From Escherichia phage PHB12, in sequence record MK524178.1: a stretch of DNA of 64,000 nt. One strand, written 5' to 3'. Below are positions 21,845-53,460 of this stretch, piece after piece. The notes under the pieces are model-generated. The model was not told the DNA's origin and made no database searches. It was given only the letters and a program-made list of their open reading frames with translations. The translations under genes were made by a program, and so were the position numbers. The first letter of the stretch is position 1. Each line of letters starts with the position of its first letter.

Positions 21845-21874
21845 CAAAAAAAGCCCCAACCTTTCGGAAGGGGC
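21845..21874 (-). terminator. rho-independent terminator (GCCCC...GGGGC stem, GAAA-type loop, U7)
   Basis: GCCCCAACCTTTCGGAAGGGGC at 21853-21874 preceded on plus strand by A7; same stem sequence recurs at 22476 and 37655. Confidence 0.7.
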
Positions 21875-21879
21875 TTTGA

Positions 21880-22437
21880 TTAGTTTTTGTAATATCGTAA
21901 AGGGTTGATATGGAATGAAAGCATTGCGCGTGGAATAGGACGACTCAAAAGACTCTTAAGTTTCCAACCACAATAAACACGCAGATAAAATGTAATACCA
22001 CCAACCTTAAGATAAGGTATAGCAGCGAATAATCCCCATGCAGACTCGTTCCAAACTAAAAGATATCCATGATGTGCCGGATCAGGAGATCCAGATTTAG
22101 TTTCGGCGTTGCCTTTATAGTGCCATTCTGATGAAGCTTCGCGACCTAAAACATGATACGAAAAATTATATGCTTTGTTGCGCCATAGCCAAGCTACGCG
22201 TTGAGCATATTTACCTATAACAGGAATTTTACGTATTTTAGACCAACGTTCAACATGGCCGCGGTCACCATCGATAGGATTATCGTAAGTCATCATCCAG
22301 TCAAAGCCATAAGGTAGTTTACCGGTTTTTTCACTATGGAATGGAACTACAAATGGTGCTAGAATAATTGCTAAAATCGCTGCGATCCAATCTATAGGAA
22401 CAAGAACAACCCAACTTATATATTTTAAAAATTTCAT
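21880..22437 (-). CDS. membrane protein, apparently late-expressed
   Basis: 185 aa; N-terminal hydrophobic region (YISWVVLVPIDWIAAILAIILAPFVVPF); late-promoter match directly upstream. Confidence 0.45.
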   Translation of the reverse strand: MKFLKYISWVVLVPIDWIAAILAIILAPFVVPFHSEKTGKLPYGFDWMMTYDNPIDGDRGHVERWSKIRKIPVIGKYAQRVAWLWRNKAYNFSYHVLGREASSEWHYKGNAETKSGSPDPAHHGYLLVWNESAWGLFAAIPYLKVGGITFYLRVYCGWKLKSLLSRPIPRAMLSFHINPLRYYKN

Positions 22438-22461
22438 ATATCCTCTCTTAGTTTACAAGGA

Positions 22462-22469
22462 TATTTATA
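22462..22469 (-). promoter_or_regulatory. T4-type late promoter TATAAATA (minus strand)
   Basis: Plus-strand TATTTATA at 22462-22469, exact reverse complement of the late consensus, about 25 nt upstream of the 21880..22437 start. Confidence 0.55.
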
Positions 22470-22470
22470 C

Positions 22471-22497
22471 AAAAAGCCCCAACCTTTCGGAAGGGGC
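22471..22497 (-). terminator. rho-independent terminator after rI (same GCCCCAACCTTTCGGAAGGGGC hairpin)
   Basis: Hairpin 22476-22497 preceded by A5 on plus strand (U5 on minus transcript). Confidence 0.65.
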
Positions 22498-37616: not shown

Positions 37617-37647
37617 ATCTTTATGAAATATTTTTATGCCCTAGATA

Positions 37648-37676
37648 CCAAAAGGCCCCAACCATAAGGAAGGGGC
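37648..37676 (-). terminator. rho-independent terminator closing the tRNA/stable-RNA transcription unit (third copy of GCCCCAACC...GGAAGGGGC)
   Basis: Hairpin 37655-37676 followed on minus transcript by CUUUUGG. Confidence 0.6.
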
Positions 37677-37728
37677 TAAGCCTTGCGGCAACCTTGTCGG
37701 GGTTCCACCTGCTAAGGCAAGTGTTTGT

Positions 37729-37820
37729 ACGAAACGCCGGGATTCGAACCCGGTTATTAAGCAGTTGACGCTACTCAATATTTTTAAAAGGCCATATCTC
37801 GACCATATCCGAACGTTCCG
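37729..37820 (-). ncRNA. tRNA-like element (canonical T-arm and acceptor stem, non-canonical core); possible stable small RNA or degenerate long-arm tRNA
   Basis: Minus strand has CCGGG-TTCGAAT-CCCGG T-arm followed by CGTTTCG, which pairs with CGGAACG about 85 nt upstream; D and anticodon regions are AT-rich and do not fold canonically. Confidence 0.3.
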
Positions 37821-37988
37821 TCAAAAACGCTACTCGGCTTATAGCAAAGATATTTCCTCGAATCGATAATTCGGTGCGCCGTTTCTGCTGTGATGTAAGG
37901 GGATATTAACGAATCATAAAGATTTATTAAGACCAGTCCTTACACAGGGAACATCAGTCCGACGACTTGCCGGTAGCGACCCGGCTTC

Positions 37989-38333
37989 TTATTTTGGCAT
38001 ATTATCAATTTGCTCTCGACGCCGACGCCATAGATTAATCGCTTCATTAACACATTCGGCGTTTAGTATATGACGGCAATAATATAATGATTCGCGTTTC
38101 TGAAACCGATGTTGCAATGGGATTTCGTTTAAAAGGTCTTTGCGATCAAAGTATTCAAAACTAGTTAACCCGGAACGGTTTTTAATGAACTTCCAATGAC
38201 CAAATTCATTTTGGAAATAAACGTAATCAGCGTGTTGATATAACGAATTAATCAACCGGTCGGAAATAACTGTATCCTGTTCGTTAAAATAAAACGTTAA
38301 ATCATGAACTACCAGATAAACATTGCCTTTCAT
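37989..38333 (-). CDS. hypothetical protein within the tRNA region
   Basis: Track ORF 37989..38381 trimmed to ATG 38331-38333 (MKGNVYLVVHD...) because the upstream part overlaps tRNA-Arg. Confidence 0.4.
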   Translation of the reverse strand: MKGNVYLVVHDLTFYFNEQDTVISDRLINSLYQHADYVYFQNEFGHWKFIKNRSGLTSFEYFDRKDLLNEIPLQHRFQKRESLYYCRHILNAECVNEAINLWRRRREQIDNMPK

Positions 38334-42205: not shown

Positions 42206-42796
42206 TTAGCGCAAGGAAGGGTGTCTAGAAATGGATTTAGATTCGGCAGCCTGACGTGGTTGTTGAGATACAATGACTTCGCCATCCTTTTCTATCGTCA
42301 TATACGCGTAATGAATAGTTGCTACGCAAGTAACGGCAGGGTCAGAGTCTTCAGTGTAACTAAATTCAATTTCGCTCAAATCGGAAATCCATGGTTTATA
42401 GAAATTTGCCGTCAAAACCACTTCAGTCTTATTGTTGTTTAAAATGTGCAAAGTAACAAACTCAGGACCATCGGAGTGGGCCGTATTATGTCCGGTTATA
42501 TAGTTATTAGTGCTGAGCATCCATTTATACATGTTCATCCAGGACGTCATGTCTTCATCAACTATAAATCGTACAATAAAGGGGTCATATTCAAATGTAG
42601 TGCCTGCACGCATTGCACGCCCTAACCCCATTGTGCCTGTCACAGTTTCAACAACAGGAATTCTCACACCTGGCAACGGCGCTGTTTGGGCATTGAGCAC
42701 AAAACCTGAAGTTCGTGTACTATCCGGGATATCCACAACAAAGTTTGTTATATTTGTTTGATTAAAAATCTGTCTCGCTGGACGAGTCATAAGCAC
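42206..42796 (-). CDS. 3: tail completion / sheath stabiliser gp3
   Basis: FVLNAQTAPLPGVRIPVVETVTGTMGLGRAMRAGTTFEYDP... matches T4 gp3 as recalled; between genes 1 and 2; exact start uncertain. Confidence 0.8.
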   Translation of the reverse strand: MLMTRPARQIFNQTNITNFVVDIPDSTRTSGFVLNAQTAPLPGVRIPVVETVTGTMGLGRAMRAGTTFEYDPFIVRFIVDEDMTSWMNMYKWMLSTNNYITGHNTAHSDGPEFVTLHILNNNKTEVVLTANFYKPWISDLSEIEFSYTEDSDPAVTCVATIHYAYMTIEKDGEVIVSQQPRQAAESKSISRHPSLR

Positions 42797-52425: not shown

Positions 52426-53422
52426 TTCAAGTGTTGTCTATCGTGCGATAGTTACTTCAAAATTTAGAACTGAAAAAATGTTGAATTTCTACAATTCAAT
52501 AGGTGATGGTGATAATAAAAACACCATCTTTATAACGTTTGGTCGGTCTGAACCATGGGCTGCTAATGAAAATGAGGTGGGCTTCGCCCCACCATATCCA
52601 ACAGACTCTGTTTTAGGTGTAACAGATATGTGGACTAACATGATGGGTTTAGTTAAAGTTATCCCATCTATGTTAGACTCGGTTATTCCTAGACGTGACT
52701 GGGGAGATATTCGTTATCCAGACCCTTATACATTCAAAATAAATGATATAGTCGTATGTAATACAGCCCCATATAATGCCACTGAAGTCGGGGCCGGATG
52801 GTTAGTATATCGTTGCGTAGATGTTCCTGATGTTGGGATGTGTTCTATTGAGTCTCTCGACAACAAAGAAGAATGTCTTAAATTAGGTGGTAAATGGACT
52901 CCGTCTGTTAGGTCTTTAACCCCTCCTGAAGGCCGTGGAGATGCTGAAGGGATTATCGAAGTTGGTGATGGATATATATGGGAGTATCTTTATGAGATTC
53001 CGCCTGATGTGTCTATAAACCGATGTACTAATGAATATATAGTCGTTCCATGGCCGGAAGAAGTTAAAGAAGACCCTGCTCGTTGGGGATATGAAAACAA
53101 TCTAACCTGGCAGCAAGATGATTTTGGCCTTGTTTATAGAGTTAAAGCAAACATAATTCGTTTTAAAGCCTATTTAGACTCAGTTTATTTCCCTAATGCA
53201 GCACTGCCAGGTAATAAAGGATTTAGACAAATTTCTATTATCACAAACCCCTTGGAAGCTAAACTCCGTCCTAATGACCCTAATATAAAGGCTGAAAAGG
53301 ATTATTATGACCCCAGAGATTTACAGCGTCATTCTGGTGAAATGATTTATATGGAAAACCGTCCACCTATTATTATGGCAATGGATCAAACCGAAGAGAT
53401 CAATATTTTGTTTATGTTCTAA
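52418..53422 (+). CDS. 8: baseplate wedge protein gp8
   Basis: 334 aa, identical length to T4 gp8; follows gene 7 with 8-nt overlap. Confidence 0.9.
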   Translation: MNDSSVVYRAIVTSKFRTEKMLNFYNSIGDGDNKNTIFITFGRSEPWAANENEVGFAPPYPTDSVLGVTDMWTNMMGLVKVIPSMLDSVIPRRDWGDIRYPDPYTFKINDIVVCNTAPYNATEVGAGWLVYRCVDVPDVGMCSIESLDNKEECLKLGGKWTPSVRSLTPPEGRGDAEGIIEVGDGYIWEYLYEIPPDVSINRCTNEYIVVPWPEEVKEDPARWGYENNLTWQQDDFGLVYRVKANIIRFKAYLDSVYFPNAALPGNKGFRQISIITNPLEAKLRPNDPNIKAEKDYYDPRDLQRHSGEMIYMENRPPIIMAMDQTEEINILFMF

Positions 53423-53426
53423 TTTA

Positions 53427-53450
53427 GGGAGACTTCGGTCTCCCTTTCGT
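53427..53450 (+). terminator. rho-independent terminator after gene 8 (GGGAGAC-UUCG-GUCUCCC + U-rich)
   Basis: Perfect 7-bp stem with UUCG loop at 53427-53444 followed by TTTCGTG. Confidence 0.65.
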
Positions 53451-53452
53451 GT

Positions 53453-53460
53453 ATAAATAG
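53453..53460 (+). promoter_or_regulatory. T4-type late promoter TATAAATA for gene 9
   Basis: Exact TATAAATA at 53453-53460, 25 nt upstream of the gene 9 ATG. Confidence 0.7.

Follow-up and report, generated by a model that had tools for sequence, protein, structure and literature searches.

Organization of the rI locus in phage PHB12

The window, that is, the whole stretch of DNA analysed here, comprises 64,000 nt of Escherichia phage PHB12 (MK524178.1), an RB69-like T4 relative belonging to Mosigvirus, and is 96-98% identical to Mosigvirus (RB69-like) coliphages. On its minus strand, tk is followed by a TATAAATA motif, an rI.1-like gene, rI, a hairpin, a second TATAAATA, a ribosome-binding site, an ORF encoding 185 aa, another copy of the hairpin, an early-like promoter and a DUF7438 gene (Table 1). 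The 185-aa product is a member of DUF7338, an already catalogued domain family. Together with a terminator hairpin, a predicted late promoter of T4 type and a ribosome-binding site, this single ORF forms a self-contained cassette with a promoter-terminator layout of its own.

Table 1. Features of the rI-DUF7338 region and the related hairpin of the tRNA unit (positions in the window)
Feature	Position	Strand	Evidence or remark
tk	23641-23060	-	PF00265, 7e-57
TATAAATA between tk and rI.1, probably the late promoter of the rI.1-rI operon	23064-23057	-	exact motif, ATG 24 nt downstream
rI.1-like gene, 70 aa	23032-22820	-	
rI antiholin gene, 100 aa, upstream neighbour of the ORF	22807-22505	-	PF24205 (Antiholin), 1.2e-23; phrog_1246 (lysis inhibition), 4.7e-30
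Terminator copy A, left arm of the repeat, native rI terminator	22471..22497	-	hairpin 22497-22476 plus five T
T4-type late-promoter motif TATAAATA	22469-22462	-	exact; one G between T-run and motif
Shine-Dalgarno sequence GAGAGGA	22447-22441	-	read off the sequence
DUF7338 ORF, 185 aa, ATG start	22437-21880	-	PF24027, phrog_2143
Terminator copy B, right arm of the repeat	21846..21874	-	hairpin 21874-21853 plus seven T
TTTACT-16-TATAGT (TG upstream), similar to an early promoter and driving the next gene	21834-21807	-	promoter scan
DUF7438 gene	downstream of TTTACT-16-TATAGT	-	
Third, variant hairpin copy GCCCCTTCCTTATGGTTGGGGC	37676-37655	-	ends the tRNA / rnaD-rnaC-like unit

The first-pass annotation had described an exact late-promoter motif about 25 nt upstream of a 185-aa ORF with a long hydrophobic N-terminus, placed between two terminator copies and next to rI. 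All of these features were recovered. The motif lies 24 nt before the ATG, the N-terminus carries one hydrophobic segment (residues ~7-33 by hydropathy only, the Kyte-Doolittle score peaking at 2.35 in a 19-residue stretch), and the upstream neighbour is an antiholin gene by its Pfam match. The interval originally assigned to the locus, 21880-22469, spans the ORF and its promoter and leaves both terminators outside.

The hairpin, GCCCCTTCCGAAAGGTTGGGGC, is identical in copies A and B, and with its T-run constitutes an exact 27-nt direct repeat, 623 bp from start to start, to which shuffled window sequences gave no matches. Copies A and B fold at -15.1 kcal/mol (z = -2.8) and -17.9 kcal/mol (z = -3.7), respectively, and each is built as an intrinsic terminator, with a stable GC-rich hairpin and a T-run directly after it (5 T in A, 7 T in B). 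The simple consensus terminator scanner missed the hairpin because its stem contains a 2x2 T/T internal loop. Copy B and the TTTACT-16-TATAGT sequence behind it combine a stem-loop with an early promoter and so resemble a PeSL, the type of phage element compared at the end of this paper. By alignment, the TTTACT-16-TATAGT sequence is also found 3' of the single terminator in phages SF and FL18.

The DUF7338 gene is probably transcribed from a late promoter

Downstream of copy A, the promoter scan detected no -35/-10 pair, and TATAAATA stands alone there. Its spacing from the ORF is the same as that of the TATAAATA of rI.1, which is context and lies outside the 623-bp cassette; in T4, the interval from tk to rI.1 contains a late promoter (PMC2962797). 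In this AT-rich window, TATAAATA is not enriched (8 found, 8.8 expected by chance), so the weight of the motif rests on its position and on its conservation upstream of orthologues in other genera. In at least 4 other T4-like lineages (Gaprivervirus and others, including Karamvirus-like and STP4-a-like ones), whose proteins are 23-32% diverged from that of the window, orthologues are preceded at -26 to -34 by a late motif that is exact or has one mismatch. A fusion of terminator, T-run and TATAAATA precedes the orthologues in L012/L023, L025-L027 and DK-13. In front of the RB16/RB43-like and Slopekvirus-like orthologues there is a terminator and no late motif. The last group, like the chance-level motif count, would fit a coincidental match, in which case the gene would depend on read-through of the rI terminator for its expression or be hardly expressed. 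We regard this as improbable, given an exact motif at the spacing of the rI.1 promoter and its recurrence ahead of such diverged proteins. Judged from these features, late transcription of the DUF7338 gene would start from the motif at 22469-22462.

DUF7338 is predicted to be a membrane-anchored protein and has invariant polar residues

The ORF product matched Pfam DUF7338 (PF24027) with 209.1 bits against a cut-off of 27 (5.3e-62), residues 1-184 covering positions 1-179 of the 180-position profile, and phrog_2143 ("unknown function") at 4.2e-79. A family profile search yielded 757 clusters at 50% identity. The best 150 of these 757 cluster matches are all single-domain proteins, mostly of ~170-200 aa, and DUF7338 alone was detected when longer family members were searched for domain fusions. 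Across 185,579 bacterial and archaeal genomes, a single match was obtained. It comes from a Flagellimonas assembly, on a contig that is phage-like and of phage size (178 kb), so no cellular homologues were found with the motif used. The protein gave no NCBIfam match and no match to PADLOC defence models at E<=1. No paralogue was found in the window and no homologue in the T4 rI and tRNA regions; a weak paralogue candidate at 42206-42796 was dropped (hhalign probability 4%). DUF7338 is mentioned in no paper found in a literature search, and the homologue bas63_0153 is not discussed in the main text of a preprint on Bas63 gene essentiality.

A single N-terminal hydrophobic anchor is predicted by hydropathy in 96% of 172 family members. 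Signal-anchor-release segments are rich in Gly, Ala, Ser and Thr; the DUF7338 segment has many Ile, Leu and Val residues instead. The domain beyond the helix, with its 10 Trp and 13 Tyr, is basic (pI 9.8); the C-terminal domain carries a net charge of +11 in the window protein. Mean net charges over the 172 relatives are ~+1 in the N-terminal flank, ~0 in the 15 residues after the helix and ~+7 in the C-terminal domain, from which an N-in/C-out topology is weakly predicted. Topology prediction had been suggested together with the first-pass annotation; hydropathy agrees with a membrane protein in giving one N-terminal segment, and the orientation stays ambiguous.

All 19 columns that are invariant in a 30-sequence alignment are kept in the window protein. 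They fall into the motifs T-x-D-N..G-D-x-G-H..R-W, W-L-W-R-N-K-x-Y and R-x-Y-x-G-W-K, and include D52, H61, R64, W83-N87 (with R86 and N87), R153 and G157-K159 (with K159). An AlphaFold2 model (pLDDT 95.5, pTM 0.84) shows a 32-residue helix (~2-33), followed by a compact basic alpha/beta domain with short helices and a five-stranded sheet. Searching the PDB with this model by Foldseek returned nothing below E 1, and a family-profile sequence search of PDB chains nothing below E 0.6. Weak Foldseek matches to "hotdog" thioesterases had TM-scores of ~0.1 and are not meaningful. Among the viral models of BFVD, the only fold matches were family members of unknown function. We infer a single-pass membrane-anchored protein with a basic, Trp/Tyr-rich domain, whose invariant polar residues suggest a binding or catalytic site rather than a membrane plug.

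The cassette is present in a minority of Mosigvirus genomes

Phage SF does not have the gene. In its genome, rI is followed by one hairpin copy and then by the same downstream sequence as in the window, and the alignment difference is precisely 623 bp; the two loci therefore differ by exactly one repeat unit. A 151-nt probe for the empty junction matched 132 records, RB69 included, whereas a 671-nt cassette probe identified 22 carriers, FL18, AV109 and PTK among them (megablast, 50,697 phage records), with no further near-identical match to the cassette at the megablast level in the same records. The DUF7338 gene thus adjoins rI in 22 of ~154 Mosigvirus records. Among the carriers, the cassette is 97.1-99.5% identical, compared with 92.9-98.0% for the flanks. 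Flank similarity fails to sort carriers from non-carriers, and the closest low-coordinate flank belongs to SF, a non-carrier. From these comparisons, the cassette appears to move independently of its flanks. Since it is confined to a minority of RB69-like phages, its place beside rI is attributed to gene shuffling and not to conserved gene order.

The same hairpin accompanies the gene at the tRNA unit of other phages

By tblastn, the window protein matched 553 phage records, which include Gaprivervirus, Gelderlandvirus, Pseudotevenvirus (RB16), further Klebsiella and Enterobacter T4-like phages, Felixounavirus (copies ~60% identical), Aeromonas phage Aeh1 and jumbo phages. Outside the 22 carriers, no match exceeds 77% amino-acid identity, and no closer donor is known. 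In all matched non-Mosigvirus phages examined, adjacency to rI is absent. In all T4-like and Felix O1-like genomes sampled, the distance between the gene and tRNA genes is 18-1095 nt, and in Felixounavirus the gene is inside the tRNA array.

The hairpin, a GC-rich stem with a GAAA loop, is common to the terminator of the tRNA unit. In T4-like genomes, the 22-mer closes the tRNA-rnaD-rnaC unit, the T4 version differing by two bases, and the exact 22-mer is present in ten IMG/VR contigs. The window has a tRNA-unit hairpin as well, assigned by alignment with T4 rnaD-rnaC and with loci carrying the gene there. It differs by three mismatches and has no gene behind it, representing an empty site; an Rfam scan of the tRNA-adjacent region returned two tRNAs and nothing else.

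In L012/L023 and DK-13, the 22-mer hairpin is directly followed by TTTTTTATAAAT(A/C) and the DUF7338 gene. The same hairpin site is empty of the gene in L015, and in L018 an internal deletion has left a remnant consisting of its first 17 and last ~60 nt. L025 and L026 show the gene bracketed by two sister hairpins, GGCCCTTCCGAAAGGTTGGGCC, 624 bp apart. Each sister hairpin is followed by T-run-G-TATAAATA, and the second copy drives an internal-protein (Ip)-like gene; L024 contains the same modules in another order. In L018-L020, the same hairpin and late motif drive internal-protein-like genes with an MKTY.EF leader. The Ip-like genes of L018-L020 and L024-L026 share the terminator-late-promoter element with the DUF7338 gene. 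As the architecture of the window is seen again in L025/L026, a gene bracketed by two terminator copies represents a recurrent cassette design. Because the same hairpin ends the tRNA/rnaD/rnaC unit, where the gene and the Ip-like genes sit as terminator-late-promoter-ORF units, it may serve as a portable recombination joint.

A model for cassette mobility

We propose that the DUF7338 cassette is a late-gene moron within the terminator of rI.1-rI, that the shared hairpin acts as the recombination joint, and that the position beside rI is a consequence of terminator identity. We assign this reading a probability of roughly two in three. It builds on the observed anatomy of the locus, the presence/absence polymorphism, the recurring architecture and the family membership. 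Two routes can be envisaged. Recombination between the two flanking hairpins would excise a circle, which could re-integrate at any other copy; alternatively, homologous exchange between co-infecting phages would carry the unit. Either route would leave the gene bracketed by two identical hairpin copies. The circle is a putative intermediate, modelled on the mini-circles of PeSLs. Given that the hairpin is shared with the tRNA-unit terminator, the rI-side position probably reflects the terminator and not a function shared with rI.

The polymorphism could also have arisen in the opposite direction, with the gene ancestral at the Mosigvirus rI site and lost from most members by recombination between identical terminators. 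The 27-nt exact direct repeat is a ready deletion substrate in recombination-proficient T4-like phages, losses are visible elsewhere (the empty site of L015 and the remnant of L018), and excision between flanking repeats is known for PeSLs. However, the 132 records without the gene, RB69 among them, far outnumber the 22 with it, and in every other T4-like genus examined its location is on the tRNA side. Among the carriers, the cassette has moreover diverged less than the sequence on either side of it, a pattern that agrees better with recent spread than with long residence, and an original insertion at the terminator is required either way. We therefore consider ancestral presence followed by loss possible, though on the unlikely side, and retain insertion of a mobile cassette at the hairpin as the preferred explanation.

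Gene neighbourhoods and candidate functions

Neighbourhoods of the gene were surveyed in ~20 sampled lineages. They are mixed, not random-looking, and about 5-6 of the ~20 lineages show an association with lysis modules. In L077/L083, two related jumbo-phage groups, a GH19-like endolysin gene is located immediately upstream of DUF7338. In L073, the DUF7338 gene is followed by genes for a small TM protein, a lysozyme, a second TM protein and an Rz-like spanin, the last with a lipoprotein ORF embedded in it; in L108, a gene for a holin-like TM/coiled-coil protein comes next and then one for a GH19 endolysin. As the small TM/coiled-coil proteins after DUF7338 in L073 and L108 show no homology, we do not claim a conserved three-gene module. 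A Phage_holin_4_1 gene is next downstream in the L080 group (15 members), and in STP4-a an endolysin gene is three genes away. In other lineages, the gene follows tail-fibre or tail-fibre-assembly genes (L011, L072, L075/L076), sits between the Neck1 and sheath genes (L074) or lies near an integrase gene (L080); nrdG and RNA polymerase are further neighbours. Chance placement at moron hot spots could account for much of the lysis-gene association, and profile, fold and hhalign searches connected the protein with no characterised lysis protein, by structure or by sequence.

Because distant relatives lie beside endolysin or holin genes, a role in lysis or at the envelope is plausible, though unproven. 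Our best guess, held at somewhat less than even odds, is that the protein assists the lysis/envelope module as an accessory factor located at the cytoplasmic membrane and active late in infection; envelope exclusion or receptor masking ranks second, and a holin proper is unlikely. More tentatively, DUF7338 may be a new, widespread class of lysis-module membrane proteins, e.g., an antiholin-like regulator or an envelope-acting enzyme, with a fold absent from solved structures. Its vehicle between virulent phages as unrelated as T4-like, Felix O1-like and jumbo phages would be a terminator/late-promoter cassette landing in any copy of the hairpin, that of rI included. With 757 clusters, a confident unmatched fold, invariant polar residues and repeated endolysin/holin neighbours, the family is a tractable target, and natural pairs of phages with and without the gene exist for phenotype comparison.

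An envelope moron that shields the infected cell or lysogen by excluding superinfecting phages, or by masking or modifying a receptor, as bitopic membrane proteins of other phage morons do, would agree with the tail-fibre, neck and integrase neighbourhoods, which are typical moron sites, with the predicted membrane anchor and with the patchy presence among close relatives. Nevertheless, late expression in virulent phages would be an odd time to start exclusion, no PADLOC defence model was matched, and the fold search found no likeness to known exclusion proteins. We consider such a role unlikely.

The first-pass annotation had suggested that a late-expressed membrane protein next to rI could act in lysis timing or superinfection exclusion. 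A late, membrane-anchored product remains plausible in view of the motif in at least 4 lineages and the anchor in 96% of 172 relatives. The argument from rI adjacency fails, because this adjacency is recent, restricted to a minority (22 of ~154 records; tRNA-side elsewhere) and driven by recombination, and because the gene is unrelated to T4 rI.-1. T4 rI.-1 occupies the same map position, directly downstream of rI, but is co-transcribed with rI, whereas the DUF7338 gene sits behind a terminator and has its own promoter. Orthology was rejected: the best BLASTP E-value was 0.16 over 12 residues, and the Pfam families differ (PF19174, DUF5856, for T4 RI.-1; PF24027 for the window protein). T4 RI.-1 is hydrophilic, its gene is co-transcribed with rI (PMC2962797), and genetic evidence shows that both rI.-1 and rI.1 influence lysis inhibition (Golec et al. 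2010, PMC2962797). Lysis timing stays a live hypothesis on other grounds, namely the distant homologues beside endolysin and holin genes, which make it possible.

A stronger version would make the protein a partner of RI that assists lysis inhibition from the periplasm or the membrane and has been selected in the rI operon region as a functional replacement of T4 rI.-1. It could appeal to an ORF directly 3' of rI with predicted late expression like that of the rI operon, to the effects of rI.-1 and rI.1 in T4 (PMC2962797), to the holin or endolysin genes adjoining family members elsewhere and, speculatively, to a strongly basic domain that might bind a periplasmic signal such as DNA. Against it, a strong terminator and a separate promoter divide the gene from rI, most Mosigviruses keep rI without it, and in genera that encode rI its orthologues are not close to it. 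The family is also common in Felixounavirus and other phages, and T4 RI.-1, hydrophilic and of DUF5856, is no relative. On balance, a partnership with RI seems quite unlikely.

Least probable of all is a holin with one TMD and a large domain analogous to T4 T: the TMD plus ~150-aa domain, the "holin" annotation in the GenBank records of UPEC03, vB_Si_35FD, HMD-P10 and vB_CbrM_HP1, and the position directly after endolysin in L077 and L083, where an ORF scan of the strand gave no convincing holin-like membrane protein alongside, are outweighed by the lack of homology to T (hhalign probability 0.09%; Pfam gives DUF7338 alone), by the separate holin-like genes adjoining in L108, L073 and L080, by conserved polar motifs that look more like a binding or catalytic site, and by the T holin that T4-like phages, the group of the carriers, already have.

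Comparison with known systems

The T4 holin T and antiholin RI share with DUF7338 an N-terminal membrane segment followed by a soluble domain, late expression (predicted here) and, for several DUF7338 relatives, a neighbourhood of lysis genes. Unlike a T homologue, DUF7338 has no sequence similarity to T, and no solved structure matches its fold.

The moron concept, reportedly due to Juhala and Hendrix, is said to have arisen from lambdoid and other phages. Morons are extra genes that bring a promoter and a terminator with them and separate two genes which adjoin each other in relatives; they often encode a membrane protein, as is predicted here. The DUF7338 cassette has its own promoter and terminator and lies between genes that are adjacent in close relatives (SF versus the window and FL18; 132 records empty, 22 filled). 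Classical morons are expressed from a prophage, whereas the gene described here belongs to a virulent phage and has a predicted late lytic promoter.

At the Ip loci of T-even phages, as far as described by Repoila et al. 1994 (via PMC2839356), late accessory genes next to tRNA genes are shuffled between conserved regulatory elements, as is the case here. DUF7338 differs from the Ip proteins in having no N-terminal Ip capsid-targeting leader. PeSL-like elements were noted at the variable internal-protein loci by Arbiol et al. (PMC2839356); those elements have early promoters and AT-rich stem-loops, unlike the present cassette.

PeSLs (promoter-early stem-loops) are stem-loop/promoter cassettes of T4-type phages, for which the formation of mini-circles and a part in insertions and deletions of this kind have been demonstrated (Arbiol et al. 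2010, PMC2839356; Comeau et al. 2014, PMC4122927). In the PeSL model, recombination between flanking elements deletes an ORF as a mini-circle, which is able to integrate at another element (PMC2839356, PMC4122927). The likeness to the present locus is extensive. A short terminator/promoter element stands on both sides of a small non-essential ORF, presence or absence is precise among close relatives, the empty genome has a single element, the regions are hyperplastic, and the bracketed layout is what the mini-circle model predicts. Copies of one element flank the ORF here, with a single element in a relative (the 27-nt repeat; SF; L025/L026). In contrast to the strong sigma-70-like early promoter of PeSLs, the promoter fused to the upstream hairpin is the late-type TATAAATA, and the early-like TTTACT-16-TATAGT follows copy B only. 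The hairpin is distinctive as well, its particular GC-rich stem and GAAA loop being those of the tRNA-unit terminator, and mini-circles are predicted here by analogy.

The locus thereby shows at single-base resolution how a late accessory gene moves within and between T4-like genomes. Its vehicle is a fusion of the shared terminator hairpin with a late promoter. This widens the PeSL and moron models beyond early-promoter elements and links the rI terminator with the hyperplastic tRNA/internal-protein locus. It also serves as a warning that adjacency in hyperplastic phage regions is a poor guide to function. What is new is, in the second place, the hint that DUF7338 belongs with lysis genes and, in the first, the architecture of cassette mobility, a late-promoter counterpart of the PeSL with the tRNA-unit terminator as its joint.

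The terminator hairpin within and beyond T4-like phages

The exact 22-nt terminator hairpin GCCCCTTCCGAAAGGTTGGGGC is also present in four IMG/VR contigs (L013, L016, L017, and L021), the last of which is GC-rich. Because the sequence around the hairpin in all four is unrelated to T4-like phages, its occurrence there points to spread or convergence of this terminator beyond the T4 group. Separately, the window contains another terminator-late-promoter composite, in which the hairpin GGGAGACTTCGGTCTCCC is followed by the late motif TATAAATA. The 45 nt upstream of this motif fold at -14.1 kcal/mol, and an ATG lies 25 nt downstream of it.

Positions of features and lengths of records
Feature	Record	Position (strand)	Record length
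tRNA-Met and tRNA-Arg	window	38508-38352 (-)	
rnaD/rnaC-like stretch	window	37640-38000 (-)	
Second composite	window	53407-53459 (+)	
DUF7338 pseudogene	L018 (IMGVR_UViG_2974735671)	1040-1120	172,379 bp
GCCCCTTCCGAAAGGTTGGGGC	L013		9.6 kb
GCCCCTTCCGAAAGGTTGGGGC	L016		43.6 kb
GCCCCTTCCGAAAGGTTGGGGC	L017		12.0 kb
GCCCCTTCCGAAAGGTTGGGGC	L021		64.6 kb
rI and DUF7338 gene	L014/L060 (Escherichia phage Av-05, NC_025830)		120,938 bp

Variants and remnants of the DUF7338 gene

The L018 pseudogene consists of the first 17 nt of the gene fused to its last ~60 nt, with an internal deletion of ~480 bp, and its context is that of the intact gene in the T4-like locus L024. One family member, P0093 (288 aa), has a 100-residue C-terminal extension (residues ~190-288) carrying C-D-K-H-D-N-C-Y, reminiscent of the phospholipase A2 active-site motif, and then a second hydrophobic segment. 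A Pfam search of this protein returned DUF7338 and no further domain.

Phage Av-05 has an rI of Mosigvirus type with a single terminator. Its DUF7338 gene, of Felixounavirus type (57% identity), lies on the other strand at a distance of about 0.5 kb, and 13 tRNA genes fall within 3 kb of it; the record has the appearance of either a chimeric assembly or a recombinant between families. The record of Escherichia phage ST2 (L104, OM982647.1) is a 171-kb Mosigvirus-like genome whose taxonomy line reads Guernseyvirinae; Kagunavirus, probably a database mislabel.

A stable-RNA-like stretch and genes with leader-like N-termini next to tRNA genes

Downstream of its tRNA-Met and tRNA-Arg genes, the window aligns closely with rnaD and rnaC, two stable RNAs of T4, together with the terminator that follows them. 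An Rfam search of this stretch matched tRNAs and nothing else, so conserved phage RNAs of the rnaD/rnaC type apparently have no Rfam family.

In the tRNA-adjacent region of T4-like genomes (L018-L020 and L024-L026), protein genes sit behind the same hairpin and late motif, the same slot being occupied by different variants of these genes. The N-termini encoded there, MKTYNEFL, MKSYAEFL, and MYTVNEFL, are similar to the leader that targets T-even internal proteins to the capsid.
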